This document shows, one piece after another, positions 10,677 to 27,975 of a DNA stretch of 64,000 nt. The first letter of the stretch is position 1. Each line of letters begins with the position of its first letter. This stretch comes from Deltaproteobacteria bacterium (lineage in GTDB: Bacteria > Myxococcota > Myxococcia > Myxococcales > 40CM-4-68-19). The stretch lies in contig JAYWBT010000182.1 of NCBI GenBank assembly GCA_043781235.1, forward strand, positions 140 through 64,139, written 5' to 3'. Below the pieces are notes generated by a model. The model was not told the DNA's origin and made no database searches. It worked only from the letters and a program-made list of their open reading frames with translations. A program made the translations under genes and the position numbers.

Positions 10677-10677
10677 T

Positions 10678-11064
10678 TCACACCACCCGCACGTCCACGC
10701 GCTGGGTCGCACGCGTTGACACCAGCACGTACTCGACCCGCACCCCGATCTGGTCCTCCTCCGGGGTGGCCTCGGGCGGCAGCACCTCGACCTTCCGCAC
10801 CGTGAGGTGCTCGGACAGCCAGGTCGCGAGAGCCTGCTGCACCAGCATCTGCGCGGTGGCCGAGACCGCGTCGGAGTTGCCGGCGAAGACCAGCGCCCGC
10901 AGGCCGCAGCCAAACTCCGGCAGGTCCGCGCGCTCGCCGGGCGAGGTCAGCAGCACCTGGAACACCATCTGCTTGACGTGGGCCTCATAATCCGCCCGCT
11001 GCGCCTGGCGCGACGCCGGGTCGATCCGGAACGGAAATGCATAGTCATGGCGCTCGGCCGGCAT
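10678..11064 (-). CDS. Baseplate wedge protein, GPW/gp25 family (Afp9-like)
   Basis: 128 aa. FPFRIDPASRQAQRADYEAHVKQMVFQVLLTSPGERADLPEFGCGLRALVF matches the gp25 signature (iL.T..GER...P.fG). Confidence 0.85.
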   Translation of the reverse strand: MPAERHDYAFPFRIDPASRQAQRADYEAHVKQMVFQVLLTSPGERADLPEFGCGLRALVFAGNSDAVSATAQMLVQQALATWLSEHLTVRKVEVLPPEATPEEDQIGVRVEYVLVSTRATQRVDVRVV

Positions 11065-11067
11065 CGG

Positions 11068-11400
11068 TCAGGTCCCCGCGCCGCGCGACTGCGTCGACGC
11101 AATCACCACGGTCCCCTGCATTCCGCCATCACCCGCGAGGCAAAACCCGACGCTCTCCTCGGTCAGCGATGGATCGCCGTCCGACGTGTGCCTCTCGGCA
11201 TGCACGTCCCATTGCACCCGCACGCACGGGTGAGGCGAGTTCCCGATGGTGAAGGAGCACCCGCCGACGGTGCAGGTGTCGGTTGAGCGCACGACAAAGT
11301 TTCCCTCGGCTTTGACCCGCGTATTCGACGTGGAGGAGGTGACGGTTCCCCCGTGCGGGCAAGACAGCGAGCTGGTGGTGGTCAGGAAGTGCGAAGCCAT
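11068..11400 (-). CDS. PAAR-like / DUF4280-like spike-tip protein (Afp10-like)
   Basis: 110 aa, Cys/Gly-rich (LSCPHGGTVTSS...TCTVGGCSFTIGNSPHPCVRVQW...GFCLAGDGG). It lies between the spike and gp25 genes, as in other CIS loci. Its start shares 1 nt with the spike stop (TAATG). Confidence 0.65.
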   Translation of the reverse strand: MASHFLTTTSSLSCPHGGTVTSSTSNTRVKAEGNFVVRSTDTCTVGGCSFTIGNSPHPCVRVQWDVHAERHTSDGDPSLTEESVGFCLAGDGGMQGTVVIASTQSRGAGT

Positions 11401-11909
11401 TAGGTGACCTCCATCGCGCCGTCGTTGACGCTGACCTTGTCCTCGGTGACGGCAATCTTGCCGGACTTGCGGACGATGGTGACGCCGTCGCGATCGAGCG
11501 TCACGCGGTTCTCGTTAGAGTCGGTGATGATGATCGCGTGATCCTTGTCGTCGAAGACGATCTGCTGGTTGCCCTTGGTCTTGATCACCTTCACTTCCTT
11601 CTTGACGCGGGCGGGGAGCTGATTCTGGCGCCAGTAGCACCCGACCCAGATCGGGTACGAGACGTCGCCGCCCTCGAACTCGATCCACACGCCCGCGTCG
11701 ACCTCGGGCAGGAACGCGATCCCGGCCTGTTCGCCAGCGTAGGGCACGCACGGCATGCACCAGCCGGTCTCGAGATCGCCGAGCACCGCGGGGACCTTGG
11801 CCTTGATGCGCGCGGTCGGCTCATCGATCTGCGTGACCGTGCCCCGGTACTTTCCGTAGAACCGGCTCCGGATCCGCTCGACGAGCTCCATCAGGGTCTG
11901 TTCATTCAT
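11400..11909 (-). CDS. Spike protein, phage baseplate assembly protein V / gp5 OB-fold type (Afp8-like, short)
   Basis: 169 aa. FYGKYRGTVTQIDEPTARIKAKVPAVLGDLETGWCMPCVPYAGEQAGIAFLPEVDAGVWIEFEGGDVSYPIWVGCYW is the classic gpV motif. Confidence 0.85.
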   Translation of the reverse strand: MNEQTLMELVERIRSRFYGKYRGTVTQIDEPTARIKAKVPAVLGDLETGWCMPCVPYAGEQAGIAFLPEVDAGVWIEFEGGDVSYPIWVGCYWRQNQLPARVKKEVKVIKTKGNQQIVFDDKDHAIIITDSNENRVTLDRDGVTIVRKSGKIAVTEDKVSVNDGAMEVT

Positions 11910-11931
11910 TGCGGCGCCTTTCTCTTCCGGG

Positions 11932-13047
11932 TCAGGGCGAGCCGACCGCGTTGCGGACCAGCACGAACCTCATGCGATGCGCCTGCGCCGTGATGGTGTG
12001 GCGCACGCTCCAGACGAAGTAATTTCCCGAGTGGACCTTTCCGGCGCCATTGATCTGAACGACCCTGCCGACGCGCAGCACCTTGTGCAGCCGGGCAAGA
12101 TCGGTCTCTCCCTCGCAGCGCACGAACCAGCCGGCCTCGGTCAGCAGGGCCGCGGAGAGCCGCTGCAGCTCGCTGGTGCTGTCAGCAGCGGCGGTGAGTC
12201 GCGCCTCCATGGCCTTATCGGTCTGGCCGGTGAAGGCAGCAAGCGATCGAGCGTCCATCGGCGAAAGTCCGGATTGCGCTGAGTCTCCGCTCTGCGAGTC
12301 CTTGCTGGTGAGCAGCAACACCTTGGCGAGCGCCGTGCTGGGCCGCGCGATGTCCCACTCGAAGTCCAGCGCATCGACCGTGGCGGCGTCCGGCGGGTTC
12401 AGGGTCAGGGGCACGTCGTCCGGGGTCGAATCGATCTTGGGCGTGATGAAGTAGCCGGTGTTGCTTCCCGGCGTGGCGCCGCAACACACGCGGAAGAGCT
12501 TGCCGTTGCGGCGCGCCCGATCGCGCAGGAACTGGGCGTCGGTGGCCCGCTGCATGAGCGTGTGTCCGCTCTTGGTGTGCTGGGGCGAGTCGTCGTCCGT
12601 GTTCGCGTCTGCCGCGATGAAACCGTAGCTCTGGAAGATGACGTTCGCGGTCTTGCCGTCGGTGGTGTCCTCCCACTCGTGGACCTGCTCCTTCAGGTTC
12701 ATCAGGCACGAGACGTCCTGGCCCCACACCCGCAGCGTCGCCGCGGTCGTGCCGCGATCGAGGTGAATCTTGTGCGACAGGACATAGCCCTCGAAGATGC
12801 ACTCGCTCGTTCCACTTTCGGGAGTGGCCACGACCGCGATGCGCGCATACGGCTGGAATTCGTCTCTTCCGATGTTGGTGAGGTCCTCCGATCCGGCCGC
12901 GCCCATGGTGGCGATCGGCAGGGTGATCTCGATCGCGCCGGGCAGATCGGCGTTCTCCTCGACTTCCAGGGAGGTGAAGAGGTCGTAGAACCAGGCCGGC
13001 GCGGCCTGACCCGGATCACCGAACATCACCTGGAAGGTGTCGCCCAT
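11932..13047 (-). CDS. gpD / gp27-like baseplate hub (late control D family; VgrG N-terminal module as a separate gene)
   Basis: 371 aa. N-terminus FYDLFTSLEVEENADLPGAIEITLP...ARIAVVA...CIFEGYVLSHKIHLDRG resembles gpD/VgrG N-domains. It sits directly upstream of the spike gene. Confidence 0.7.
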   Translation of the reverse strand: MGDTFQVMFGDPGQAAPAWFYDLFTSLEVEENADLPGAIEITLPIATMGAAGSEDLTNIGRDEFQPYARIAVVATPESGTSECIFEGYVLSHKIHLDRGTTAATLRVWGQDVSCLMNLKEQVHEWEDTTDGKTANVIFQSYGFIAADANTDDDSPQHTKSGHTLMQRATDAQFLRDRARRNGKLFRVCCGATPGSNTGYFITPKIDSTPDDVPLTLNPPDAATVDALDFEWDIARPSTALAKVLLLTSKDSQSGDSAQSGLSPMDARSLAAFTGQTDKAMEARLTAAADSTSELQRLSAALLTEAGWFVRCEGETDLARLHKVLRVGRVVQINGAGKVHSGNYFVWSVRHTITAQAHRMRFVLVRNAVGSP

Positions 13048-13049
13048 GG

Positions 13050-13325
13050 TCAGCGGTCCTTCGCGGGGACGCCGACGAGGTCGCGCGCGGCCAGCGCGTC
13101 GGGGGCGATGGCGTCGCCGGCGTCACACAGCCGCCAGAACGCGGTCGCGTCGCCGAGGTAGCGCGAGGCGATCAGATCGGGACGCTGCGTGTCCACCCGC
13201 GGATGAAACCCGCGAATGGCCGGCCGCAAACGGATGGGCAGCCGGGTGACGGTGAAGGTCGCCCCGCTCGCCGTGCGCGCGGTATACGTGCCGGCGTTCG
13301 CGTAGCGGCTATTGGGGTAAAACAT
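13050..13325 (-). CDS. LysM-like small tail protein (P2 gpX-like)
   Basis: 91 aa. RPDLIASRYLGDATAFWRLCDAGDAIAPDALAARDLVGVPAKD resembles the degenerate LysM found next to hub genes in CIS loci. There is a 2-nt gap to the gpD-like start. Confidence 0.55.
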   Translation of the reverse strand: MFYPNSRYANAGTYTARTASGATFTVTRLPIRLRPAIRGFHPRVDTQRPDLIASRYLGDATAFWRLCDAGDAIAPDALAARDLVGVPAKDR

Positions 13326-13337
13326 GGTTCCTCATGG

Positions 13338-13982
13338 TCAAGGGAGCATGCCGATCACCGCGCGGGCTGCGTCGCCGAGGTTGGCCACGGCCCCCGCCAC
13401 GCGCAGGCCCTGGGTGTAGTGGTAGGCTCCGCTGGCGATCGGGCCCAACGGTCCGGAGACCGACCGCAGCTCGCTCGGCGTGAGCACGCGCAGCTCGATT
13501 TGCGCATCGGCATGCGTCGGATTGAGATCTTCGTCGTAGAGCTTCTCGGTGATCGTCAGGCTGGTCACCCGGACCGGCACGATCCGGGCCGCCCCCCAGA
13601 CGAACAACACCGTTGGCACCTGGGCGCTCGGGGTCGGTCGGCTCTCGCCGGCGGACGCCGGCAGCGGCGGACCCGAGGCGGTGGGAAAGAGCAGCATCTC
13701 CAGCGCGGCGAGCCGCGGATGGATCCCGAAACTCTTGGCCATCGCTCTGACCGCGAGATCCGGGTCAGCCAGCTGGTCGGTGACGTCCAACGAAACGCTG
13801 AACGAGAAGGTCTCGCCCGGCTCGCCGGTCACGGCGAGCGGGTTCGATCCGGACTGCCCCGATGCGGTCGCGGCCTGCGACCAGACATGGCGCAACGTCT
13901 CGGGGTTGTACTGGAAGATGACGACGTTCGGCACCCCGACCTCGAAGGCCGACATGTACTCGACCAGCGCGCCCTTCTTCAT
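13338..13982 (-). CDS. Tube-initiator / CIS tube-like protein (Afp5/Afp7-class)
   Basis: ORF 13338..14126 trimmed to ATG 13982 (MKKGALVEYMSAFEVGVPNVVIFQYNPETL...VLFVWGAARIVPVRVTSLTITEKLYDEDLNPTHADAQIELRVLT). This is the LxFxWG...v.i.slti.e..fd..l.P..A.v.l.l motif of CIS tube-domain proteins. ATGA overlap with the upstream stop. Confidence 0.6.
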   Translation of the reverse strand: MKKGALVEYMSAFEVGVPNVVIFQYNPETLRHVWSQAATASGQSGSNPLAVTGEPGETFSFSVSLDVTDQLADPDLAVRAMAKSFGIHPRLAALEMLLFPTASGPPLPASAGESRPTPSAQVPTVLFVWGAARIVPVRVTSLTITEKLYDEDLNPTHADAQIELRVLTPSELRSVSGPLGPIASGAYHYTQGLRVAGAVANLGDAARAVIGMLP

Positions 13983-14212
13983 GACCACCTCGCCAGCGCG
14001 TAGGACATCTCGGCCGCGATCCGTCGCGCCATCGACTCGAGCGCTTCTCCGGGGCGAGGTGCGACGCTCACGCGCAGCCGATCGGTGGCGAACGCCGCGC
14101 CGGGCGCATCCGCCGACGCCAGGCACTCCGCGACGAGTCCCGCGAGACGGCGCGCGTCCGCTTCGGAGAGCCCCTCCAGTCGAAGAGTCAGGCGATCGAC
14201 GTGCAGGTCCAT
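13979..14212 (-). CDS. 77-aa hypothetical CIS-embedded microprotein
   Basis: MDLHVDRLTLRLEGLSEADARRLAGLVAECL... Its stop overlaps the next start as ATGA (13979-13982) and its start lies 4 nt after the ATPase stop. GC3-rich. No recognisable family. Confidence 0.55.
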   Translation of the reverse strand: MDLHVDRLTLRLEGLSEADARRLAGLVAECLASADAPGAAFATDRLRVSVAPRPGEALESMARRIAAEMSYALARWS

Positions 14213-14216
14213 TGCC

Positions 14217-16328
14217 TCATCCCTCCAACTCGCCCGCGCGCAGGAGCAAACCGTGCTTGGCGAGCTCGCGCCGCCCCGCGTGCAGCACGTGCGCCATTCC
14301 GATCCGCGCGCCCTCGCTGCGCGCGAGGAAGGCAGCGCCCATCGCCGCGGCCTTGATGTCGGCTCCGCTCATGTCGAACCGTTGCGCGAGGAGATCCCAG
14401 TCGATCGAATCGAGCAGCTCCTCGCCGTTCGGCGCGCGCGCCGGAAGGGCCAGCGTCCAGAGGAGCCGGCGCTCGTCGACTCCCGGCGGGAGGAAGTCGA
14501 CCACGAAGCGGATCCGACGCAGGAAGGCAGTGTCGATGTCGCCCTTGCGGTTGGTCGCGAGGACGGCGATTCCGTCGAAGTTCTCCATGCGCTGCAGGAG
14601 GTAATCGATCCCGATGTTGGCGAACCGGTCCTGCGCGTCATTGACCTTGGTCCGCTGGCCAAAGAGCGCGTCGGCCTCGTCGAAGAAGAGCAGCACATTC
14701 GCTCGCTCGCAGGAGTCGAAGACCTGGCGCAGGTTCTTTTCGGTCTCGCCGATGTACTTGCTCATCACGCCGGCGAGATCGACCCGGTAGATCTCCATCC
14801 CGAGCGAGCGCGCGAGGACCTGCGCCGTCATGGTCTTTCCCATGCCGCTCTTTCCGGTGAACAGCGCCGCGATGCCACGACCCATGGGACAGAGCCGCCC
14901 GAAGCCCCAATCTTCATAGACAGGCCAGCGGAGCTTCGCCTGCGCCTCGAACTCTTCCAGGTGGCGCCTCACCGACGGTGGGAGGACGAGGTCGTCCCAG
15001 ACGTACGGACGGGGCAGGCGCGCCGCCAGCGAACCGGAGTCCGCCCGCAGGGTCGCGCGGCAGGCGTCTATCACTGCCTCGGGTCCCGCCCGTGCCACCG
15101 CCGCTGCGCGCGCGATATCCGAGGGCAGGAGTGGCCAGTCGAGCACTGGCGGTGGCACGGGCTCCCCGGACAGCTTCGACCACAGCCCGGAGCGCGCCGC
15201 GCGGGTCAGCGGAGGGAGCCGCACCGTGCGGCGGGCGGCGTCCTCGCTCACGGCGTGCGAGGCGGAGCCCGCGAGGCTGGTGCCGAAAAGCGACAGCGGA
15301 ACGCGCCGGGTGGCATCGCGCCAGGCGGCGGGAATTGCCTCGTCGGCGTCGTGCCAGTAGACGACGGCGCGCAGGAGCCGGGCAGTCCGGGTCACCTGCA
15401 CGAACGCCTCGGCGGCCGCCGCCGGGTCCACGCCGGCGCCCATCAGTTTGCCGGCGTCGGCGACCAGCAGCGCGAGGTCGAACTCGTCGCACAGCTGCAT
15501 CGCGAGCGTGCGCTTGCCGGCTCCGGCAGCACCCGCGATCAGGATCTCGATCGACTGCTCGTCATCCTTCGAAAGCGTGCGGACGAAGGACGTCATCGCT
15601 GCGAGGTCGGCAGGGTAGAGGCAGTGGACCTTGCGGGCGGCCGAGGGTGGCACGAGCCTGGCCGCGCCTCCCAGGCGCGGATCGAGCGAGATTCCGTGCA
15701 AGAGACAGGTGGCGATGTGAGGGTCGATCACCCAAGACGCGGTGACCGACCAGGGATTGGCTTGTCCGTCCGAAGGTCGCGCCATCCTCCAGCGAAGGAG
15801 CGCGGAGTCCGGTCCGACCTGCGTGCCGGCCGGCCACTGGAAGAGCTGCCGCGCCAGCCACGGAGTCGGAAGGCTGCTGGTCGCGTCGTCGTGGATGTAT
15901 CCGAAGACGCGACGGAGCCAGGGGTCCGCCTCGACCGCGAGGGCCAGCGTCAGGAGATCCACCTCGGGATCGCGCAGGCCAAAGTCGAGTCGGAACCGGC
16001 CGAGAATTTCGTCCGCGGCGGTGGCGAGATCGGCGGCACGGATCGGGGCGTCCAGATCGCGCACCGCCGGATCGCTGTCGTAGAACGCAAGCTCGGCGCG
16101 GGCGAGCTGGTCCGGATCGGCCAGGACCCGGTCGACCTCAACATGCGAGATCGCAAGGCCCTGCCCGCCGGTGGCGTCGCCCGCCCAGAGGCTCCGGAGC
16201 CAGAGCACACGGCGGCGGGCGCGCAGGCGAATGCGGGTCAGGAAGGCCGGCTCCGTCGCGGAATGCTCCGCGGCGATCGTCAGCCGGTCGCCCCTCCCGG
16301 ACCTCATCTCGCGCGACGCTTCCCTCAT
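14217..16328 (-). CDS. AAA+ ATPase, Afp15/Pvc15-like CIS assembly ATPase
   Basis: 703 aa. Walker A GKSGMGKT, Walker B LLFFDEADALF, second-region motifs ATNRKGDIDTAFLRRIRFVVDF, and a long non-ATPase N-terminal domain. ATGA overlap with the upstream stop (16325-16328). Confidence 0.9.
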   Translation of the reverse strand: MREASREMRSGRGDRLTIAAEHSATEPAFLTRIRLRARRRVLWLRSLWAGDATGGQGLAISHVEVDRVLADPDQLARAELAFYDSDPAVRDLDAPIRAADLATAADEILGRFRLDFGLRDPEVDLLTLALAVEADPWLRRVFGYIHDDATSSLPTPWLARQLFQWPAGTQVGPDSALLRWRMARPSDGQANPWSVTASWVIDPHIATCLLHGISLDPRLGGAARLVPPSAARKVHCLYPADLAAMTSFVRTLSKDDEQSIEILIAGAAGAGKRTLAMQLCDEFDLALLVADAGKLMGAGVDPAAAAEAFVQVTRTARLLRAVVYWHDADEAIPAAWRDATRRVPLSLFGTSLAGSASHAVSEDAARRTVRLPPLTRAARSGLWSKLSGEPVPPPVLDWPLLPSDIARAAAVARAGPEAVIDACRATLRADSGSLAARLPRPYVWDDLVLPPSVRRHLEEFEAQAKLRWPVYEDWGFGRLCPMGRGIAALFTGKSGMGKTMTAQVLARSLGMEIYRVDLAGVMSKYIGETEKNLRQVFDSCERANVLLFFDEADALFGQRTKVNDAQDRFANIGIDYLLQRMENFDGIAVLATNRKGDIDTAFLRRIRFVVDFLPPGVDERRLLWTLALPARAPNGEELLDSIDWDLLAQRFDMSGADIKAAAMGAAFLARSEGARIGMAHVLHAGRRELAKHGLLLRAGELEG

Positions 16329-17221
16329 GGCACGTCCAGCCAGATCTCCATCAGCGGCTTGCCCGCGTCTGGCCGCACGGAGAGGAGGTATCGTCCCGGC
16401 GGAGTGGATTGCGGAATCTGGACCTCCAGCGTGGTCGGACTGACAACACGAAACTGGCCGGGCGTGAGTGGGCTGTTGGTGGTCGCCTCGAGCGGGAGCG
16501 CGCGAATCCGCGCCTCGGTCCCGCCGACGACGAAGCCCGTGAAGCTCCGGTCGGTGATGATGATCGTGGCGAGCCCCGTCGCGGAGGCGGTCGCGGTGAG
16601 CTCGATCGATCCGGGGATGATCTCGAACGCCTCGACCTCGTGGGGCCGCTTGAAGTCGGGCGCTTTCAGCACCGGTTTCGGCGCCTTCGGCGGCGGCGGC
16701 TCGATGAAGATGACGCTGGCCCGGTAGACCGCCGAGAGCCGCATCGGGCTGCTGATCGACTGCCAGAGCCTACCGGTCTCGTCGATCGTCTGGGGCTCGA
16801 GGGTGAGCGTAAACTCCTCGCTCCGATCTCCCGGGGGCACCGTGGCGCTGATGCTGGAGTGCTCGTGGAAGCACTTGAGGGCGATGCTCATCGCCTGCTG
16901 CTCCGCGATGTAGGACTTCGACGAATGGGCCGTGACCAGGTAATAGAGCGTGAGCGCGAGCGGCTGTTCGGGGATCTTCTGTGCGCTGCCGCCCGTCGGA
17001 AATGTGTTGCGATAGAATTTGTCCGGGGCGACGTGGAACAGGTAGACGCTGACCTGACAGCCGTCCTCCGCCCGCGCGGCGTCCGGCGCCAGGCCGGTCC
17101 AGGAAAAAGTGGGCGCGGAGCCCGGGTCGTCGACCCATAGCTGGGACGCGCGCACGCACGCTTTCAAGTGGTCGATCAGCCGATCGGTCACGATGGAGAG
17201 ATCGAGGAGTCCCAGCGTCAT
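16325..17221 (-). CDS. DUF4255 / Pvc16-Afp16-like tail terminator (cap) with C-terminal Ig-like extension
   Basis: ORF 16325..17680 trimmed to ATG 17221 (MTLGLLDLSIVTDRLIDHLKA...VSVYLFHVAPDKFYRN...LALTLYYLVTAH), the DUF4255 signature. The C-terminus (...PGRYLLSVRPDAGKPLMEIWLDVP) looks like an Ig/IPT-like beta-sandwich. Confidence 0.75.
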   Translation of the reverse strand: MTLGLLDLSIVTDRLIDHLKACVRASQLWVDDPGSAPTFSWTGLAPDAARAEDGCQVSVYLFHVAPDKFYRNTFPTGGSAQKIPEQPLALTLYYLVTAHSSKSYIAEQQAMSIALKCFHEHSSISATVPPGDRSEEFTLTLEPQTIDETGRLWQSISSPMRLSAVYRASVIFIEPPPPKAPKPVLKAPDFKRPHEVEAFEIIPGSIELTATASATGLATIIITDRSFTGFVVGGTEARIRALPLEATTNSPLTPGQFRVVSPTTLEVQIPQSTPPGRYLLSVRPDAGKPLMEIWLDVP

Positions 17222-17226
17222 GGCCG

Positions 17227-18216
17227 TCAACCCTGCCGAAGACCGATGGCCGACGTGAACCCGCGCGCCAGCTGGGTGGTCGGTGCGACGCGCGCGGCGG
17301 CGGGCGGGCGCGGGACCGACGGCGGCGCCGGCACCGGGAGCAGGTGCACCTCGACGGCTCCGATGTGGATCCCGGTGAACCGCTCGGGACCGGACACGGC
17401 TGCAGATCGCCCGCGAGGCGCCGCAGCGGCGCCCGGGCCCAGCGGCTCGCGAGGAGGCGGCCCCCGCGGCGGTGTCGCACGCGCTCCCGTTCCGCGAGCA
17501 GCCATCTCGCGCGCGGCCGTCTGCCGGGTGACGATCTCGCGGATGACCGTCTCGCGGATCGGCCCGGCGCGGTGCGCGGCTTCCGTCCTGGCAGGCTCGC
17601 GCCCGGGACGCGCCGCGGAAAGATCGCGCTCGGAGTGAGGGCGGGCGATCGGAGCGGTTTGCTCCCCGGAGGTGGTCCATCTCACCGCCGCCGCGAGGGC
17701 GACCGCCAGCGGGTCCGGGCCGAGCCGGACGTTGCTCCTCGGTTCCGTCCGGAGCCGCTCGGTTTGCGCTCTCGGGATCGGCTGGGTCCGTGGCGCGGCC
17801 GCGGGCGGTTCCGTTGGCTGCGACTGGAGAGCGTCCGCCGGGGCCGAGTCATGGGCGCTCGCCATTGGCAGGGACTCGTCGCGCCGGGCCGCCGGTGCGA
17901 GTCCGGCGTCGGAGGGCGCGGCGGGAGCCGCGATGACGGCGGGTGCCGCGATGACGGCGTGTGCCGCCGGCTCTGCCGCGATCGCCGGGTCATCGCTCCA
18001 TATATGTTGCGGGTCGATCTGCGCGGTTGCGCGCGGCCAGGTCGGGCCGGCGGGCGGCAACGTCAAAGGGGCTGTCCTCGGTACCCGTGCGGCAAACGCG
18101 GGCTCGTCCGGCGGCGTCGCGGGCAGCGACCGCACCAGCCGCCGCGGGCGCAGCAAGCCCGGGGTGTCCTGGACCGCTCGGCGCGCGACTTGCTGGAGAT
18201 ACGTTCCGCGCGGCAT
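17227..18216 (-). CDS. Pro/Ala-rich hypothetical protein; tape-measure (Afp14-like) candidate
   Basis: ORF 17227..18645 trimmed to ATG 18216 (MPRGTYLQQVARRAVQDTPGLLRPRR...). 329 aa and largely low-complexity, with an ordered C-terminus ERFTGIHIGAVEVHLLP...LARGFTSAIGLRQG. It sits between the tube module and cap/ATPase. One-nt overlap (TGATG) with the upstream gene. Function is inferred from position only. Confidence 0.55.
   Translation of the reverse strand: MPRGTYLQQVARRAVQDTPGLLRPRRLVRSLPATPPDEPAFAARVPRTAPLTLPPAGPTWPRATAQIDPQHIWSDDPAIAAEPAAHAVIAAPAVIAAPAAPSDAGLAPAARRDESLPMASAHDSAPADALQSQPTEPPAAAPRTQPIPRAQTERLRTEPRSNVRLGPDPLAVALAAAVRWTTSGEQTAPIARPHSERDLSAARPGREPARTEAAHRAGPIRETVIREIVTRQTAAREMAARGTGARATPPRGPPPREPLGPGAAAAPRGRSAAVSGPERFTGIHIGAVEVHLLPVPAPPSVPRPPAAARVAPTTQLARGFTSAIGLRQG
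17927..17962. repeat. 2 x 18-nt tandem repeat inside the tape-measure candidate
   Basis: gccgcgatgacggcgggt / gccgcgatgacggcgtgt, encoding AVIAAP AVIAAP on the minus strand. Confidence 0.7.
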
Positions 18217-19010
18217 CACGCCCTGGTCCTTTCCTGCTGCGCCTGCTGGGCTTCGGCCAGCTCCACGTAGCGGGCCCGGCGCGCCGCGGGGAGCGCGAGG
18301 ATCTCCGCCTCGGACCAATGGTAGTGGTGCGCGATCGCGCAGACGTCCTCGTAAACGAAGGCCGCCTGCTCGCGCAGCTCGCTCAGCGTGTACTGCAAGG
18401 GCTCGAAGCTGGCCTCGACGGTCGCGCCGCACTCCGGGCAGATGCCCTGGAGCTCGGAGTAGAGGCTCGGGGCCATCGCCTCCATCGCCGCCTCCACCTG
18501 CCGTTGCTCCCGCTCGGTGATGTCCGCGGGGCGGACGCAGCGCCGCAGCAGCGCCTGCTCGGGCTGCGGCGCGCGCGCGATCGCGAGCTGATCGGCGGCT
18601 CGCGGAAGCCGGAACTCGAGGTTCTGGTCCTCCAGCCGGTACCATCCGTCGTCTCCCGAAGGCAGGACGCCGGGCGGCGCGGCGGGCAGGTGATGCTCAA
18701 GATACGCCTGGATCGAGAACGTGATGTCGACGTGCGCGTGACAGCCGGGAGCGGTGCAGACCTCCTCCGCGCTGACGATGTCGCCCACCACCCGCCGGCG
18801 CAGATGGAGAAGGAGCGCGTCGACGTCGCCGATCGGCAAGGTCGCAGGATCGAGCGGGGCGCCGTCCGCGCAGCTTGCGACGAGTGACAGGAGCGCGAGA
18901 GCCACGCCCAGGTCCAGCGGACCTGCCTCGAGCAGCAAGATGTCCTCTGCGCCGGCAGGCAGCCGCAAGACGACGTCCCTGCCTGCTACCGGAAGCCGGA
19001 CGGCTGCCAC
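18216..19010 (-). CDS. Hypothetical CIS protein with two Cys pairs (possible Zn-ribbon); assembly-factor candidate
   Basis: 264 aa. Cys pairs CTAPGC and CPEC, and a conserved-looking tail VYEDVCAIAHHYHWSEAEILALPAARRARYVELAE. It lies between the tube and the tape-measure candidate and starts 1 nt after the tube stop. Confidence 0.65.
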   Translation of the reverse strand: MAAVRLPVAGRDVVLRLPAGAEDILLLEAGPLDLGVALALLSLVASCADGAPLDPATLPIGDVDALLLHLRRRVVGDIVSAEEVCTAPGCHAHVDITFSIQAYLEHHLPAAPPGVLPSGDDGWYRLEDQNLEFRLPRAADQLAIARAPQPEQALLRRCVRPADITEREQRQVEAAMEAMAPSLYSELQGICPECGATVEASFEPLQYTLSELREQAAFVYEDVCAIAHHYHWSEAEILALPAARRARYVELAEAQQAQQERTRA

Positions 19011-19011
19011 G

Positions 19012-19527
19012 TTACGTCTTCTTCTCGTCCGGCTCTACGATGGTGAGATCCCGCTCCCACCCCTCGTTCTCCAGCTTGACGTGCTGGAGGGCGATGGCGT
19101 TGCCTCCCGCATCGAGATCGGGGATCGCCTGGTATTCCGAGACCCAGCAGCGGTAGACGATGTATTGGTGCACCGGCTGACCAGCCTCGTTTTGAAGGAC
19201 GATCCGCACGGTCTTGCGGAGGTCCCCGAGCGACGACTTGGGTGCCCCCTTGTCCAGCACCTGGGACGCGTTGGCCCAGTTCTCGAAGTCGGAATCATGG
19301 GTCACGCCGCGCTCGAGCGTGATGGCCTCGTACTTGGTGCGCCCGATCCCCTTCAAGGTGATCGCGTTGCCCCCTTCCTTGTAATCGATGACGTCGGAAG
19401 ACCGCTTCATGCCCGTCACCTTGCTGACGCCGGCGACGGGCTGGACCGATTCCCCGAGGTAAACGAGGAAGCGGTAGTTCTTGTACGGATCGAAGCGATT
19501 GATGTTGACGGAAAATGGCTTGCTCAT
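19012..19527 (-). CDS. Tail tube protein (T4 gp19-like / Afp1-like)
   Basis: ORF 19012..19782 trimmed to ATG 19527 (MSKPFSVNINRFDPYKNYRFLVYLGESVQPVAGVSKVTGMKRSSDVIDYKEGGN...), the typical conserved phage-tail-region tube signature. Confidence 0.9.
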   Translation of the reverse strand: MSKPFSVNINRFDPYKNYRFLVYLGESVQPVAGVSKVTGMKRSSDVIDYKEGGNAITLKGIGRTKYEAITLERGVTHDSDFENWANASQVLDKGAPKSSLGDLRKTVRIVLQNEAGQPVHQYIVYRCWVSEYQAIPDLDAGGNAIALQHVKLENEGWERDLTIVEPDEKKT

Positions 19528-19537
19528 GGTCGCCCCC

Positions 19538-21142
19538 CTACGCCTGCACCTGACCCGCGATCTGCGAGATCTTGATGATGACGAACTCGGCCGGCTTGAG
19601 CGGGCGGAACCCGACCAGGATGTTGACGATACCGAGATCGATGTCGCTCTGCAGCGTGGTGCTCGCGTCGCACTTGACCCGGAACGCCTGGCTCGGCGAG
19701 GCGCCCTGGAAGGCGGCCTGACGGAAGAGCGAGAGCATGAAGTTTTCGATGCTGATGCGTATGGCGGACCACAGCGGCTCATCGTTGGGCTCGAACACCA
19801 CCCATCCGAGATTGCGCAGGAGCGTCTGCTCGATGAACAGCGCGGTGCGCCGCACCGGCACGTATCGCCACTGCTCGAATGCGGGGTTGGCGGTGACGGT
19901 GGTTCGTGCGCCCCAAACCACCGTCCCGCTGCCGGGAAACGACCGCAGCACGTTCACCCCGAGCGGGTTCAGGGTGCCCTGGCGCATGTCGGTCATCCTC
20001 CCCTCGTCGACGACGCCGGTGGTGTTGAGGATGGAGGTCTCGAGACCGGCAGGCGCCTTCCAGACTCCACGGTTGGTGTCGATGCGGGCGCAGATTCCGG
20101 CCACGAATCCGCTGGGCGGCAGGGCGATGACCTCGTTGGTGATGGGATCGATCGTCTTGAGGTAGGGGAAGTAGAAGGCGCCGTTGGGTACGGCGGTCGG
20201 CACGGTGCCGTTGAGGACGGCGTCCGCGATCTTGGGCAGGTCTCTTCCTGCCCCGTCGGCGGTCAAGTTGGGAGGCGGATCGATGATGAAGAAAGCCCGC
20301 TTGTGCTCGCAGAAGCCAAGGGCGGTGCTCCAGATGCCCGCGTCGGCGATCCCGGGGACGACGAGGAGGTTGAAGATGTCCACCTTGTCGAGCGAGCTGT
20401 CGGTCTCGAAGACGTCGTGAAAGTCCTGCGGGCTGAACGTCGTCCAGCCACCCGCGAGGGTGGCGGGGACCGTCAAGGCCGACAGCTCGATGGCCCCCGA
20501 CGTGAAGCTGCCCGGATACCGACCAAGGACCTGGTCCTGCGGAGCCACCTGCACGAGCCGCGACAACGCGAGGCGTTTTTCGATGAAGTTCGAGTCCGTA
20601 ATGGTCGCAGGGTCCGCGCCAGCGATCTTCACGCCTCGGTAGGACTCCACCTGCGAGCCGAAGGTGATGAGGATGTCCGCGGTATCGTTCGCCGGGGATG
20701 GCCTGACGTTGCCGATCGTGATCGTCATCCGGGTCACGTCAGTCAGCTGCCTGGCCGTGAAAGTGATTCCGCTTGTGCTGGCGCTGGCGGGCGAGATGGG
20801 CTGGGGGGAGATCGTTGGCGGGACCTGGGAATCGTAATATTGCGGCTGCAGGCCGACCACATAGGCGTCGGAGCCGCCGTTGAGGAAGAACTGGTTCACC
20901 GCGTACGCGACGTTGGAGTCGATGAAAGTGCTGCGATACAGCCCGCCGAAGATGCGCTCGTAGTCAGTGAAGTTGAAGATCCGGATTGCCCTGCCCCACT
21001 CGCCTCTTTCTGCGCACTCGCCCCTGAATGGATGCGTGTAACCAACGAAAGCGGTGATCGAGGTCGGCGCGGCCGTGATGGCGTGCGACGAGCTGGGTAC
21101 CTCTTCGATATAGAGGCCGGGATACGAGACGGAAACGGGCAT
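19538..21142 (-). CDS. Contractile tail sheath protein (Afp2-4-like)
   Basis: 534 aa. MPVSVSYPGLYIEEVPSSSHAITAAPTSITAFVGYT... is the canonical sheath N-terminus. A strong AAGGAG SD lies upstream of ATG 21142. Confidence 0.9.
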   Translation of the reverse strand: MPVSVSYPGLYIEEVPSSSHAITAAPTSITAFVGYTHPFRGECAERGEWGRAIRIFNFTDYERIFGGLYRSTFIDSNVAYAVNQFFLNGGSDAYVVGLQPQYYDSQVPPTISPQPISPASASTSGITFTARQLTDVTRMTITIGNVRPSPANDTADILITFGSQVESYRGVKIAGADPATITDSNFIEKRLALSRLVQVAPQDQVLGRYPGSFTSGAIELSALTVPATLAGGWTTFSPQDFHDVFETDSSLDKVDIFNLLVVPGIADAGIWSTALGFCEHKRAFFIIDPPPNLTADGAGRDLPKIADAVLNGTVPTAVPNGAFYFPYLKTIDPITNEVIALPPSGFVAGICARIDTNRGVWKAPAGLETSILNTTGVVDEGRMTDMRQGTLNPLGVNVLRSFPGSGTVVWGARTTVTANPAFEQWRYVPVRRTALFIEQTLLRNLGWVVFEPNDEPLWSAIRISIENFMLSLFRQAAFQGASPSQAFRVKCDASTTLQSDIDLGIVNILVGFRPLKPAEFVIIKISQIAGQVQA

Positions 21143-21184
21143 GAATTCTCCTTACGTCCTGGCGCAAATCATCGGACAGAAGCT

Positions 21185-22006
21185 TCAAGCGCTTGCGGGC
21201 AGGGTCGCTCTTGCCGGGGTGGCCGCGGTTGGCTCCGTTCCGCCAGCGAGATTGATGGAGCCCGGTTTCGGCCGCTTGTATCCATCCGGCGCGGAAACGG
21301 TCACCGCGAACCCCAGTTGAGGATTGAGGTCGCCAAGCCCGCTGACGGCAGTCACCTTCTTGGTCCACGTCACGGTGAGCGTGAAGGTCTTGGAGCCGGT
21401 GGCTGGCTGCTGGACGTTCGAAACCGCGATCGTCCATTCTGTGGGAGCGGAGCCAGTTCGCGCCGCCACAAGTGTAAACGACGTGGTCGGATTCCCGCCC
21501 GTGACGGGTCCTGCGACCGTCCAGTTCGGCGGATTCGTTGCTGCCACGAGAACAGCGGAACCCGCGATTGGATCCGGCGCACTGGGGGCGACTTGGGCGC
21601 GCACGAGGCTTGGCCTGGTCCCGGGAGGCCCGCTGGTGCCCCCGATGACGTTCGGCAGGGAACCGAGGGTCAGTCCCTCATACGTGTCCGTCTCGGTGAC
21701 CGTGACATCCACTTTGGCCGGATCGGTGTTTTGGGCCACCGTCACCACGATGTTGTTGCCCGTCGATCCCGGGGCCACGGCGGTGAACACCATCGCGATG
21801 CCAGGAGCGGGCACCTTGCCTGGACCGAGTCGCCCTTGCGCAACCAGATACTTCAGCCAATCCTGAAACGCGCCAGTGACTTCTGGATTGCTGGAATTGA
21901 CCCCATTCCCATCGAAGAAGATCTCGGCCAGCGGAAGAGAAAGCTGCTGGCCGGCATCCGTGACAAAAACGATCGGCCCATCTCCAACTGCTGCGATTTG
22001 CGTCAT
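21185..22006 (-). CDS. Hypothetical Thr/Val/Pro-rich protein, first gene of the CIS structural operon
   Basis: ORF 21185..22066 trimmed to ATG 22006 (MTQIAAVGDGPIVFVTDAGQQLSLPLAEIFFDGNG...), preceded by a GGGGGA SD. The beta-rich C-terminal half includes TFTLTVTWTKKVTAV. No family recognised. Confidence 0.6.
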   Translation of the reverse strand: MTQIAAVGDGPIVFVTDAGQQLSLPLAEIFFDGNGVNSSNPEVTGAFQDWLKYLVAQGRLGPGKVPAPGIAMVFTAVAPGSTGNNIVVTVAQNTDPAKVDVTVTETDTYEGLTLGSLPNVIGGTSGPPGTRPSLVRAQVAPSAPDPIAGSAVLVAATNPPNWTVAGPVTGGNPTTSFTLVAARTGSAPTEWTIAVSNVQQPATGSKTFTLTVTWTKKVTAVSGLGDLNPQLGFAVTVSAPDGYKRPKPGSINLAGGTEPTAATPARATLPASA

Positions 22007-22119
22007 CGGTCCCCCTACGACGCTTGATTGAATGTCTGTCTTGCTCCCCGCACGAACGGAAAGCAAGAGGGGTCAAGCATTCTTCGTGACGCGCAGTGGG
22101 ACAATCGAGGATCTGATTC
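22007..22119 (-). promoter_or_regulatory. Candidate promoter/regulatory gap upstream of the CIS structural operon
   Basis: This 113-nt gap is the only sizeable gap between the toxin/immunity pair and the structural genes, and it is comparatively AT-rich. TTGACC is present on the minus strand (plus-strand ggtcaa 22071-22076). A 7-bp inverted repeat is present: tcttgct (22039-22045) / agcaaga (22062-22068). I could not identify a convincing -10 or sigma-54 element. Confidence 0.2.
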
Positions 22120-22884
22120 TTACCTTCCCTCGGGAATGTTGAAGTTAGGAGCCTCGAGCGGGCGTTCCGGATCGGTCGGGTCGTAGAAGACACGACGCGG
22201 GATGGCGGCGGCGAAGCGGGCCGCGGCTTCGATCCCGGCCGGCTGATCCCAGTCCTCGGGGCGTTCGAGCACCTGCACGAACCAGCCACCGCCATCGAGG
22301 GGCTGCGAGACCACCGCCGGGGCGCGGGCCAAATGCTCGGGGCCGAGGAAGGCGGTGTACTCCGGTCCGAACCACATCCGATAGTGTGGATGTTCGAGAC
22401 CCTTCGTGTAATCCTGGACTGTCAACCGCATCTCTTCTCCGCCAATCGGCGACGGAACCCAACGCTGGCTGAATGCGCGATAGGCGTCCTGGCGGGCGGC
22501 GACGGCGAGCGGAGCACGGACGATCCCCATCAGCTTCCAAACGCCGTCGCGCTGGCTGTTGAGCTCGAAGCACTTCGCTGCGGCAGGCGCGCCCCAAGCG
22601 GTGTAGCCCGCGAACGAACGCTGAAACTCCCGGTCGGGAACGATGCTGAAGGTGATGTTCGCTTTGGGCTGCGCCAGTTCGAGTACCCCCCATCCGCGCA
22701 GCTTTTCCACGAGGAGGCGCAGCCGCTCGGCAGGGTCGGCGGGCAGCGACTCGCGCGCCGTCGCTTTGCCGTACTTATCCGGATCAATCCACCGGACATC
22801 GTTTAGGACGTGGCGGAGCAACGGCTCGCCCGTCTTGGACGGCAGAGGGCCGGGCGGGAGGTTCACGTGGGTCAACATCAACAT
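22120..22884 (-). CDS. Candidate immunity protein for the upstream nuclease toxin
   Basis: ORF 22120..23145 trimmed to ATG 22884 (MLMLTHVNLPPGPLPSKTGEPLLRHVLNDVRWIDPDKYGK...). The start is 12 nt after the toxin stop and has a GGAG SD. 254 aa with no signal peptide or TM segment. Function is inferred from the toxin-adjacent position. Confidence 0.6.
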   Translation of the reverse strand: MLMLTHVNLPPGPLPSKTGEPLLRHVLNDVRWIDPDKYGKATARESLPADPAERLRLLVEKLRGWGVLELAQPKANITFSIVPDREFQRSFAGYTAWGAPAAAKCFELNSQRDGVWKLMGIVRAPLAVAARQDAYRAFSQRWVPSPIGGEEMRLTVQDYTKGLEHPHYRMWFGPEYTAFLGPEHLARAPAVVSQPLDGGGWFVQVLERPEDWDQPAGIEAAARFAAAIPRRVFYDPTDPERPLEAPNFNIPEGR

Positions 22885-22895
22885 TCCGGCTCCGT

Positions 22896-25800
22896 TCAAG
22901 GAAAGCGATAGATCCTGGCGAGTCCATTGCGAACAAGCCTTGCGAGCCTGTCTTCTAACGGACGACTCAATCTGGTTTCGCCCCGCTCGTGGGCCGCTGA
23001 GCGGACCACGACCTCGATGAAGCCTCGGAAGGTCTCGACGTAGTCCAGCATGGCGTGGAGGTTCTCTGTGTGGAGGCTCTCTGTGGTGTCGTTGTAAATG
23101 TAGTCCCAGCCCTTGACCTCGACAAAGTGATACTGCCGTCCCCAAACAGGAGATCCGTTGCCGAGATCACGGACCCCGTCGGGACGGAATCCGCCCTCCC
23201 CGCTCGGATCCATGAAGACCTCGAAATTCTCCGGAACCCCGAGACGGTTGAGCGCAAGATTCTGAAATTCGCCGCCGGCGATTCTGTTGGTGAGAATTTG
23301 GCGGTACTGTCGCTCCCAGGCTGGGTCGGGCCGATCGGCGAGCTCCGGGAAGCGTTCGCGATGGGTTTGCTGATACTCGAACCAACGCTGTCGTATGTGG
23401 CCTTCGGTACCGGCCTGCAGCGGCGCCCCCGTCAGCGGATCCAGACGCGCGCGCGGTGCTTCCCCGCGGGTGGTCGCGGCTTCGGGGGCCGGGACCGGCC
23501 CTCCGCCGCGCAGCCGGTCCATCATCGCCGACAAGTCGCGGGCCGCAGCCTCGTCGAGAGCATGCCCCGCGGCCGCGCGCTCTCCGAGAGCGCGCAGCCG
23601 GGCTGCCTCCGCCGGTTCAAGCCTGCCCGCCAGCCGGAACATCCCTTCGACCTCGGCAGGCGAACGGCCCGTGCGCTGCGCCATGGCCTCGACGAGCGCG
23701 CGCGCTCTTCCTTCCGGCAGCCTGAGTGGTTCCTCGACGCGGAACCGCAACCGGCAACGGGTGCACTCGATCGAGAGGCGCGTGCGTCCGCGCACCGCTG
23801 CGAGGAAGCGGCCAGCCATTTCGGCCCCGACCGCCAGCGCCACGTCCGCCACCATCTCCCGGATGGGAACCGCCGCACGCTCCAGGTGCAAGTTCGAGAG
23901 ATCGTCGAGACGCCCGTCCTGCGGCGGCGCGATGCGGGTCAAATGATAGCCCGCTTCGACGAGGTGCCCGAGCGCGGAGCCGAGGAAATCAATCTGCATC
24001 GCCCATCCGACGATGGCGAGCGTGCCGCGGATCGCGGCGCCGATCGCCGGGAAGGGCGGCGGCATCGCCAGCATCGCCGTCGCGGCGCCGTGAACGGTGA
24101 GGAAGCCCACGAACACCGGCAGCATCTCTTCGAAGCGTTGCACCACCAGCTCCGGCAGACCCTCGATGACACGCTCCTTGACGAGGTCGCTGTTGTGCCA
24201 ATAGAAGTCCGCGCCGCGCGCCACGGCCCGCGTCGGCTCTGTCACGTCCATGCGCAGCGCGTTCAAGATCCCGAACAACACCGGGTCGGAGATGCCGGCG
24301 ATGTTGATGCCGTGGTGCATCGGCTCCGACCCGACGTATCCCGTGTCGCGGTAGCCTTGACCGGTGATGCCGCGCAACGGGTTGTTCTGTGAGTCGTAGA
24401 GGAGCACGCCGTTGGTGCGGTCAACGATGGCGATCTGGTCGCCTTCCCTGCTGTGATCGATCTGCAGCAGGTTCCGGGTGGCCGTCGGATTACCCCAGTT
24501 GAACTGCTCGAAGATCCGCTCCTCGAGGGGTTCGAAAGCCCGCTGCACCGTGCCGCCGGACCGAGCGAACTCGGTATATCCTTGCGTGAAGAGATGCGTG
24601 AAAAACCGCCTGCGGCCGTCGTCGCCGATGATCTGCAGGATCTCTTCGGGCGCGAGCCCGCCCTGCGCGAGCGCGGTCGTGGCGTCGCTGTGTGACACGC
24701 CCGCGAAGCGCCCCATCAGCGTGAGGTAGTAACGCGACAGGTCTTCGTTGCCGGCGAGCACGCTCCAGTTCGCCTCGACGGCAGCCGCCGGAGCATGATG
24801 ACCGCTGCGCTCGGCCATCGCCACTGCGTCGTCCACTGCGATGCCTGTGATCAGGGCATCGGTCTCCTCGAGCATCCGACCCGCCGTGGCGAGCAGGGCC
24901 GTCTGGTGTTCGTCGGCTCCGAGCGCTCCTCTGAGCACTTGCGCGACCGGCTCATCGAGCAGGACGCCCCTCAGGTGAGACTGGCGCTCGAACTGTTGGT
25001 GCGTCACCGCCTGCCCGCCGGTCGAATACTCGTTGACGGCGCCCTGCACCAGGTCGGTGATACGAGTCGCCTCTTCGGGCGAGCGCGCCAACCGCCGGAC
25101 GTAAGCGAAGATCGACGCGCGTATGCTTCCTTCCCAGCGGATCGTGATGCTCTGCGGTGCGCGCCGCCGCTGAGGCCTCGGCTGACGCTGGACTTCTGGA
25201 ACCTCGCTACTCGCACGGCGTGCAATCGTCGGCTGGGATGCCGATGACGGCAGCGTGGTCGCACCCTGCTGCACGGTGTGCGCGAGCTCGTGCGCGATCA
25301 GCTCGCGCCCCGCCGTCGAATGAGGGCTCCATTGAGCAGCGCCGAAATAGATGTTGGGGCCGGCAGTGAACGCGAGCGCGTTCAGCGACTCCGCCGCGTT
25401 CGCCGCCGCACGGCTGGTATGGATCCGCACGCCGCTGAAGTTCTGCCCGAATCGGACACCGAAGAAGTGCTCCAGCGACCCAGGCAGCGGCATTCCCGCT
25501 TCCGTCGGAAGCCCGTCGATCACCGGCAGCGCCATACGCCCGGCAACGTGCCTGGCTCGGACCGGGCCAGCCTCACTTTTGCACGCACAGCCGGGGCCGC
25601 AGGCAGGGCACGCCACGCTCCGCCTTTCAATGGGAACCGCGGTGCCGGCTGCATCCATGACCTGCCGCGCAGCGCGATCCGCCTCGGCCTCGAGTGGATC
25701 ATTTGGGGCACCGACTCTCAGCCTCGCCTGCACAGCGACCGCGCTCGGCTGGACGCGCAGCACGGCCTGATTGCCGACGCTGGCCTGGAGTCGCGCGGCA

Positions 25801-25910
25801 TTCCGCGCCGCACCTCCAGGAGGCGCAAAGCGCTCCTGCTTTGCTGCGCTCGACATGGACCGGATGGAACGCGCCAGCGCTGGCTGTGTCGCCCGACTGG
25901 GTGGATGCAT
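22896..25910 (-). CDS. Polymorphic toxin: N-terminal leader + DUF4157 (zincin-like HExxH) domain, long central region, C-terminal PD-(D/E)xK nuclease-like module
   Basis: ORF 22896..26054. The DUF4157 signature is LEHFFGVRFGQNFSGVRIHTSRAAANAAESLNALAFTAGPNIYFG...GRELIAHELAHTVQQG (HExxH at ~25278-25292). The leader motif is ARLQASVGNQAVLRV...VGAPNDPLEAEADRAARQVM. The C-terminus GGEFQNLALNRL...GGFRPDGVRD...YHFVEVKGW matches the PD...ExK pattern. Start chosen at ATG 25910 (MHPPSRAT, AGGA upstream). Alternatives are TTG 26054 and ATG 25856. Confidence 0.85.
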   Translation of the reverse strand: MHPPSRATQPALARSIRSMSSAAKQERFAPPGGAARNAARLQASVGNQAVLRVQPSAVAVQARLRVGAPNDPLEAEADRAARQVMDAAGTAVPIERRSVACPACGPGCACKSEAGPVRARHVAGRMALPVIDGLPTEAGMPLPGSLEHFFGVRFGQNFSGVRIHTSRAAANAAESLNALAFTAGPNIYFGAAQWSPHSTAGRELIAHELAHTVQQGATTLPSSASQPTIARRASSEVPEVQRQPRPQRRRAPQSITIRWEGSIRASIFAYVRRLARSPEEATRITDLVQGAVNEYSTGGQAVTHQQFERQSHLRGVLLDEPVAQVLRGALGADEHQTALLATAGRMLEETDALITGIAVDDAVAMAERSGHHAPAAAVEANWSVLAGNEDLSRYYLTLMGRFAGVSHSDATTALAQGGLAPEEILQIIGDDGRRRFFTHLFTQGYTEFARSGGTVQRAFEPLEERIFEQFNWGNPTATRNLLQIDHSREGDQIAIVDRTNGVLLYDSQNNPLRGITGQGYRDTGYVGSEPMHHGINIAGISDPVLFGILNALRMDVTEPTRAVARGADFYWHNSDLVKERVIEGLPELVVQRFEEMLPVFVGFLTVHGAATAMLAMPPPFPAIGAAIRGTLAIVGWAMQIDFLGSALGHLVEAGYHLTRIAPPQDGRLDDLSNLHLERAAVPIREMVADVALAVGAEMAGRFLAAVRGRTRLSIECTRCRLRFRVEEPLRLPEGRARALVEAMAQRTGRSPAEVEGMFRLAGRLEPAEAARLRALGERAAAGHALDEAAARDLSAMMDRLRGGGPVPAPEAATTRGEAPRARLDPLTGAPLQAGTEGHIRQRWFEYQQTHRERFPELADRPDPAWERQYRQILTNRIAGGEFQNLALNRLGVPENFEVFMDPSGEGGFRPDGVRDLGNGSPVWGRQYHFVEVKGWDYIYNDTTESLHTENLHAMLDYVETFRGFIEVVVRSAAHERGETRLSRPLEDRLARLVRNGLARIYRFP

Positions 25911-26090
25911 CGCGCCGTCCTGTCCCGGTGGTGCGGATACAACAGTCCGCTCCGATCCAACCGATGTCAATCCAGTCCCGGATCGCAATCGGAATATCCA
26001 CCGCCTCGGTGCGGCGCCGCCGTCGTGTACCAATGGAGGTTGACTCTTGTTCAACTAGATACGGCCGTGCCCATCCAAGGCTGGGTCGAT

Positions 26091-27915: not shown

Positions 27916-27975
27916 GATTCAGGGGATCGCGCGCCCATCGTCCAGTCTTGCGATCGAGTTTTGGCAACGACAAGC

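Follow-up and report, generated by a model that had tools for sequence, protein, structure and literature searches.

The domain DUF4157, currently named eCIS_core ('eCIS core domain') in Pfam (PF13699), is the strongest known sequence marker of the toxins associated with extracellular contractile injection systems (eCIS), for which Geller et al. (2021, PMC8213781) give an odds ratio of 2614. Zhang et al. (2012, PMC3482391) read it as a peptidase that frees polymorphic toxins delivered by PVC. For these eCIS-associated toxins (EATs), C-terminal nucleases and, occasionally, pairs of toxin and immunity gene have been described (PMC3482391; PMC8213781) and, together with the plan of DUF4157, linker and toxin domain and with Tox-REase domains followed by a downstream immunity gene, are already published (PMC3482391; PMC8213781; PMC11297309; PMC9635880). 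Here, a window, that is the whole analysed stretch of 64,000 nucleotides (nt) from a Deltaproteobacteria bacterium (contig JAYWBT010000182.1), is described in which a DUF4157 toxin gene and an open reading frame (ORF) of 254 amino acids (aa) stand directly before the structural genes of a contractile injection system (CIS). The analysis supports the reading of this locus as a polymorphic-toxin type nuclease effector and immunity pair attached to an eCIS.

Several described systems share part of this arrangement. The DUF4157 toxins of eCIS/PVC equally possess an N-terminal DUF4157 with an HExxH motif, a long linker and a variable C-terminal toxin domain encoded beside CIS structural genes; unlike in those systems, the C-terminal domain in the window lies outside the annotated ones and the pair is located 5' of the sheath genes, with a 3' position being more usual. 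The succession of disordered N-terminal region (judged by composition in the window toxin), DUF4157 and C-terminal domain is also the layout of the eCIS cargo proteins Cgo1 and Cgo2 of AlgoCIS, which are located in the tube lumen, are of similar size (Cgo2 1228 aa) and belong to an operon that likewise encodes an AAA+ ATPase (10.64898/2026.05.27.728243). Outside DUF4157 the sequences are unrelated, and no immunity gene features in the passages that describe Cgo1 and Cgo2. The combination of a PD-(D/E)xK effector with a downstream alpha/beta immunity protein, on the other hand, is found in TseV/TsiV (PA0822/PA0821; Salmonella TseV2/3-TsiV, DUF3396) and TseT/TsiT, which in contrast to the window pair depend on PAAR/VgrG delivery through a type VI secretion system (T6SS) and carry VRR-Nuc or Tox-REase-5 as toxin domain. 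The features of the pair are the following.

22896..25910 (-): toxin gene, 1004 aa from ATG 25910, from the ORF list and a start-codon survey
25491..25910 (-): N-terminal leader, aa 1-140, rich in A, G, P, S and R, from motif coordinates and composition
25260..25490 (-): DUF4157/eCIS_core (PVC-metallopeptidase) domain, Pfam PF13699, E 1.5e-25
23697..25259 (-): linker and unique middle region, ~500-520 aa, with one hydrophobic stretch by hydropathy
22899..23696 (-): mobile C-terminal cassette, aa 739-1004, ~270 aa, bounded by BLASTP against P0007 and P0013
22899..23480 (-): putative Tox-REase-7-like PD-(D/E)xK toxin domain, last 194 aa, with 54 relatives and invariant D/E/K
22890..22893 (-): GGAG ribosome-binding site, 5 nt before ATG 22884, read in the sequence
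22120..22884 (-): immunity gene candidate, 254 aa, no signal peptide, unannotated family

The C-terminal domain and its downstream partner

When 1.84 billion cluster representatives were searched exhaustively with HMMER, 54 relatives of the C-terminal domain were recovered (38 at E <1e-10), in proteins of ~250 to 1370 aa where the domain forms the extreme C-terminus in nearly all cases not ended by the contig. Alignment of 33 full-length copies identified the invariant residues W33, W55, Y59, G69, D101, G114, Y117, E121, K123, N140 and Y147, among which D101 belongs to (I/R)PD and E121 and K123 to ExK, both taken to be strands. In the window, the putative catalytic codons are those of D911 (23178-23180), E931 (23118-23120) and K933 (23112-23114), situated on the minus strand in and around the strings GGEFQNLALNRL (23241-23276), GGFRPDGVRD (23166-23195) and YHFVEVKGW (23106-23132); every peptide quoted in a preliminary description of this DNA was recovered on this strand at the place assigned to it. 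In a member-by-member scan, Pfam Tox-REase-7 (PF15649) was matched by 10 of the 33 aligned copies with a best E of 4.7e-7, and no other Pfam family occurred in more than three members or reached an E below 0.2. The family consensus equally matches Tox-REase-7 with an E of 0.0011 and 19.6 bits. It covers model positions 1-77 of 84 from the glycine of GxxxE/GxxFE onward, which agrees with the published GxxxE, IxD and ExK motifs (Zhang et al., 2012, PMC3482391). The Pfam gathering cut-off of this family is 25 bits, with consensus and window copy both below it. With the Tox-REase-7 toxins of CdiA, Rhs and T6SS effectors the family has in common the C-terminal position, the G-x-x-x-E/Q helix, the (I/R)PD strand and the ExK strand; it differs from them by an additional conserved W/H-rich N-terminal extension of ~70 aa and by an immunity partner that is not ImmHEAT, Imm23 or Imm54. 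Compared by motif, the family has GxxFE, IPD and ExK where the window copy has GGEFQ, RPD and EVK, and an invariant N follows ExK in place of the Q of the published signature.

The toxin gene terminates with TGA at 22896-22898 and the ATG of the 254-aa ORF follows after a spacer of 11 nt that contains the GGAG; the preliminary description had been right about the length of the linked ORF and its own ribosome-binding site, while its spacer of 12 nt was one too many. Homologues of this ORF in a large protein collection number four (P0002-P0005, 58-36% identity), each immediately behind a gene whose product ends with this toxin domain. Further loci (L006-L009) were found independently via the toxin domain, a six-sequence alignment having given one genome and four metagenome loci.

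L001: homologue of the 254-aa ORF after a DUF4157 protein of 1021 aa, within a further CIS cluster
L002: homologue after a 537-aa PT-TG protein
L003 and L004/L005: homologue directly after the toxin-domain gene
L006 (a metagenome-assembled genome of Myxococcaceae) and L007-L009: homologue 0-40 nt downstream of the toxin domain

The partner gene is consequently directly downstream of the toxin domain in all eight other loci that have downstream DNA, at a distance of 0-40 nt across L001-L009. Across 28 locus pairs the identity of toxin domain and partner is correlated (Pearson 0.96, Spearman 0.85), which, as the locus pairs are phylogenetically non-independent, is read as co-inheritance with no formal test attached. 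An independent line of evidence comes from the predicted fold. AlphaFold with a five-sequence alignment gave a best model with pLDDT 81.8 and pTM 0.81, and Foldseek with this model against the PDB returned four significant matches, all to two proteins and with probability 1.0, namely BPSL2088 (4rho, E 2.4e-7, TM 0.50) and PA0821 (7drg, E 7.7e-6 to 1.6e-5, TM 0.53-0.60). PA0821 is TsiV, a DUF3396 protein that gives immunity to the VRR-Nuc (PD-(D/E)xK) T6SS effector PA0822 (PMC9635880; PMC10281587), so that the likeness in fold points toward immunity against a PD-(D/E)xK nuclease. The 254-aa protein is therefore predicted, from modelling, to have a TsiV/DUF3396-like fold, and conservation of the gene pair indicates that it is probably the cognate immunity gene, as had been proposed at the outset and as is now backed by homologues in eight of eight loci, by co-varying divergence and by the PA0821-like model. 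PoNe/PoNi was considered as a candidate system and rejected, since DUF1911/DUF1910, to which PoNi belongs, was not found here.

A number of observations speak against the interpretation of the two genes as nuclease and immunity gene. The window C-terminal domain (last 170, 194 and 334 aa) matches neither Pfam nor NCBIfam even at E 10, and a PDB sequence search with it gave only chance-level matches at E 10. The window copy departs from the consensus by GGEFQ (most members FE), RPD (most IPD) and TEN (most TGN) and by seven extra aa inserted after EVKGW. From the single sequence, AlphaFold reached a pLDDT of 47 for the toxin domain, Foldseek on this model returned no PDB match, and the toxin-family profile found no solved structure in the PDB. 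On the side of the immunity protein, DUF3396, Imm52 and other Imm families showed no sequence match, and the four remaining models of five have pLDDT 55-62, which leaves a single confident one. Furthermore, Tox-REase-7 is not listed with PVC delivery by Zhang et al. (2012, PMC3482391).

Other searches were equally negative within their scope. PADLOC gave no match with the C-terminal 170, 194 and 334 aa; PDB searches with the alignment profiles A1 and A4 gave chance-level matches only; a word-indexed protein search with the domain and then with the 33-sequence alignment found no match, these toxins seemingly being missing from the index; and tblastn with the domain and with the consensus against plasmids found none. 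For the 254-aa ORF, sequence searches of Pfam, NCBIfam, PADLOC and the PDB gave no match, and five members of the immunity family compared with Pfam, NCBIfam and the PDB showed no DUF3396/TsiV-like match, the difference to TsiV-type immunity proteins thus residing in the sequence, next to a TM of only 0.5-0.6. Of the checks suggested in the preliminary description, the hidden Markov model search of the 254-aa ORF against Imm families and the structure prediction of the C-terminal domain alone (pLDDT 47, no Foldseek match) gave no match and no usable model, respectively, and the hidden Markov model search of the C-terminal 170 aa against Tox-REase families had a divided outcome, with the window's own copy unmatched and 10 of 33 relatives and the consensus matching.

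These negative results could be taken to mean that the window C-terminal domain is decayed or not a nuclease, with D, E and K otherwise employed and the 254-aa protein a chaperone or adaptor, a proposition that deserves hardly any credence. The absence of the helix-1 glutamate and of several near-invariant residues, the insertion, the missing Tox-REase-7 match of its own sequence and the lack of a usable fold model fit decay; yet D, E, K and eight further invariant residues are intact, and other members, too, show Q at the FE position, so that the copy is an outlier inside its own family with its triad D911/E931/K933 preserved. Equally, the partner gene is intact and accompanies the cassette whatever the delivery system, which fits immunity and not a system-specific chaperone, and its predicted fold resembles known immunity proteins. 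Reading the locus as a nuclease-immunity pair, the missing Pfam match of the window copy, the 19.6 bits of the consensus and the 10 of 33 matching members suggest a sister or outlying Tox-REase-7 subfamily, and comparison of the relatives supports a PD-(D/E)xK Tox-REase-7-like nuclease domain. The PD-(D/E)xK module of the preliminary description has thus gained invariant D/E/K and relatives that match Tox-REase-7, while the single-sequence model was too poor to confirm a nuclease fold.

Architecture of the toxin and modularity of its cassette

The minus-strand open frame extends from stop to stop over 22896-26054, with an ATG at 25910, as expected for the ~1000-aa toxin proposed to begin there, and a second possible start at ATG 25856. 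The public gene call (P0006, 879 aa) starts at ATG 25535 with MALPVIDG and is short of ~125 aa of leader. As the leader matches the N-terminus of P0013 (BLASTP E 5e-6) and is conserved at other DUF4157 N-termini, the public call drops a real part of the protein, and on these comparisons the 1004-aa model is the better one.

Within the leader, 69% of the residues are disorder-prone, as judged by composition alone, and the motifs RLQASVGNQAVLRV (25752-25793, minus strand) and NDPLEAEADRAARQVM (25656-25703, minus strand), which had been pointed out ahead of DUF4157 beforehand and are both present, recur as a pair in other members of the DUF4157 family, likewise at the N-terminus. Loading in AlgoCIS depends on the region that precedes DUF4157, and DUF4157 itself is dispensable (10.64898/2026.05.27.728243); by analogy, the leader of the window toxin is probably a loading signal. 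The leader also contains a cysteine cluster, CPACGPGCAC (25584-25613, minus strand, aa 100-109), with four Cys in ten residues of disordered-looking sequence, which may represent a small knot that binds metal or is held by disulphides. The zincin-like DUF4157 that follows scores 89.6 bits with PF13699, where the cut-off is 22, at an E of 1.5e-25 and over model positions 1-77 of 79; it contains the string LEHFFGV... from 25475 (minus strand) and has HELAH at 25278-25292 as its HExxH, in HELAHTVQQG at 25263-25292 (minus strand); the assignment of this head to DUF4157 with an HExxH, made in the preliminary description, is thereby secured; with this E-value and with PD...ExK residues that are invariant in 33 relatives, the agreement exceeds chance.

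The lineage-specific middle region has no Pfam or PDB match and no BLASTP similarity to P0007 and P0013. The window toxin resembles these two DUF4157 members only in its leader, in DUF4157 and over the last ~270 aa, with similarity resuming exactly at LVEAMAQRTGRS (P0007 49% identity, E 2e-63; P0013 38%, E 5e-44), where a helical pre-toxin stretch opens the cassette and is followed by the toxin domain. The same block of pre-toxin and toxin follows PT-TG in other family members. A PT-TG-like stretch in the window toxin, PIREMVADVALAVGAEMAGRFL, is degenerate and scores no Pfam match; P0012 and P0013, which combine DUF4157 with the same cassette, have Poly_export (Wza-type) and a clear PT-TG in their middle region.

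Among 40 full-length relatives, the N-termini comprise PT-TG (13), eCIS_core (9), Poly_export (4), DUF6861 (2), T6SS_Tse3_N (2) and Ntox3 (1), and lipoprotein-type signal peptides are found on at least five cassette carriers. One C-terminal cassette on varied N-termini, the same toxin domain with different delivery regions, is how a polymorphic-toxin cassette behaves. The lipoproteins P0017, P0018, P0023, P0026 and P0031 (~520-570 aa, lipobox-type signal peptides) carry the cassette as well and could be SitA-like toxins that are passed on through outer-membrane exchange.

Proposed delivery by the adjacent injection system and probable targets

The machine encoded behind the pair was delineated by Pfam scans.

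3096..22066 (-): CIS structural operon
21185-22066 (-): sheath-like ORF, 273/293 aa
19538-21142 (-): sheath
then, in this order (-): gp19 tube, Pvc16_N cap, AAA+ ATPase, CIS_tube, Phage_base_V spike
then (-): DUF4280 (PAAR-like), gp25 and two Baseplate_J proteins
3096-5621: unannotated 841-aa ORF after the baseplate genes

The immunity gene is separated from the first CIS gene by 113 nt on the same strand, and no terminator-like site was found between them, which bears out the earlier placement of the pair directly upstream of the operon. A second, distantly related CIS locus, L001, has DUF4157, cassette and immunity gene as well, with a sheath 37% identical and a cassette 49-59% identical to those of the window. 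The 5' position of the pair in the window, which had been contrasted with the 3' position in Afp/PVC and does hold here, is a minor variation; in L001 the pair lies mid-cluster. From the published association of DUF4157 with eCIS and from L001 it is inferred that the toxin is a CIS payload. In the proposed course of events, the 254-aa protein would bind and block the nuclease in the producer cytoplasm, like TsiV with TseV; the leader would be recognised by the AAA+ ATPase of the operon and the unfolded toxin packed into the tube lumen; contraction would expel the toxin into the target cell; and the nuclease domain, possibly freed by the DUF4157 peptidase, would cleave nucleic acid, DNA being likelier than RNA. 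Taken together, a neutralised nuclease, loading through leader and AAA+ ATPase, delivery by contraction and Tox-REase-7-like cleavage of nucleic acid constitute a rather probable account of the locus.

It is unlikely that the two genes are a genuine toxin/immunity pair which merely resides beside the operon, where a fragment of an insertion sequence (IS) marks the border of the island, with another exit route or with action inside the producer and no CIS delivery. Such independence from the machine would be in line with the presence of the cassette on PT-TG, lipoprotein and other non-CIS N-termini, with the island-edge position next to the IS remnant at 27220-28059, with the 113-nt gap and with the hydrophobic stretch in the middle region of the toxin. 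However, the toxin begins with the eCIS-specific DUF4157 and a typical leader (odds ratio 2614; PMC8213781), L001 repeats the arrangement in a second CIS locus, the operon strand is shared with no terminator-like site in between, and DUF4157 proteins of AlgoCIS are experimentally loaded cargo.

Alternatively, a cytoplasmic or membrane-bound CIS of the Streptomyces type might serve the regulated death of producer or kin, the immunity protein restraining the nuclease until firing. Cytoplasmic CIS that mediate cell death have already been published, toxin and immunity gene at the 5' end would be expressed along with the machine, and no tail-fibre domain was recognised by the Pfam scans among the ORFs at the operon's 3' end. 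Still, the 841-aa ORF (3096-5621) could be a fibre, elsewhere the cassette is borne by secreted or surface toxins, and DUF4157 cargo is known from a released eCIS, all of which makes such a suicidal role very improbable.

Other bacteria are most likely the target organisms, because the cassette also arms PT-TG and lipoprotein toxins. The preliminary description had argued for an antibacterial, kin-directed or self-killing role, not an anti-eukaryotic one, from the need for an immunity protein. Any nuclease made in the cytoplasm needs an inhibitor, so that the immunity gene alone is no proof of a bacterial target; such a target is nevertheless favoured through the PT-TG and lipoprotein carriers. 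With some reserve, one might go further and envisage an eCIS for warfare of bacterium against bacterium, with a hitherto unnamed cassette of REase-type toxin and TsiV-fold immunity moving horizontally between eCIS, PT-TG/T6SS-type and myxobacterial-style lipoprotein toxins. If true, this antibacterial case would be relevant to the puzzling lack of immunity genes for most eCIS toxins that act on bacteria (Geller et al., 2021, PMC8213781).

The novelty is limited and comprises an outlying Tox-REase-7-like subfamily (54 representatives) missed by domain libraries, a dedicated unannotated immunity family with a predicted TsiV-like fold, and the association of a toxin type with eCIS that is unlisted for Tox-REase-7 in Zhang et al. 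(2012). The locus leaves the current picture of how eCIS toxin systems work unchanged. The two newly defined families would improve the annotation of DUF4157 proteins having 'no other domain'. Furthermore, a defined eCIS toxin/immunity pair, here from an uncultured high-GC environmental bacterium, is reportedly uncommon and therefore a tractable test system for eCIS action on bacteria, for cargo loading by leader and DUF4157 and for the block of a Tox-REase-type nuclease by a TsiV-like protein.

Surroundings of the pair and of its counterpart in L001

Upstream of the toxin gene, the following features were recognised.

26483-27028 (-): Ala/Gln-rich ORF, 181 aa, just upstream of the toxin gene
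27220-28059 (+): transposase fragment (IS remnant), HTH_21/HTH_32 only, no catalytic domain found

Beyond the IS remnant, housekeeping genes follow, encoding a CDP-alcohol phosphatidyltransferase, a TPR protein and an FAD flavoprotein. With the 181-aa ORF, the IS fragment and housekeeping genes upstream, the toxin/immunity pair marks the 5' edge of the island. Family searches with the 181-aa ORF gave chance-level matches only, and its candidacy as a conserved partner of the toxin was rejected, as the ORF of 181 aa close to the L002 toxin bears no relation to it.

Between toxin gene and 181-aa ORF, at 26091-26466 on the plus strand, a divergent leader-only remnant of a second DUF4157-type gene is discernible, in which ATG 26091 opens MDAPTRK...HAARLQASVGNQAMARV and a shifted frame continues with ...GFGNQAALRLPLDSITSLGDPADDLSAVARQLIGE to 26466, no DUF4157 following; it is probably a pseudogene left by rearrangement. 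In L001, a second DUF4157 protein of 761 aa is encoded at 10760-13045 on the minus strand, convergent with the toxin-immunity pair, and multiple DUF4157 effectors per CIS locus thus occur in this group.

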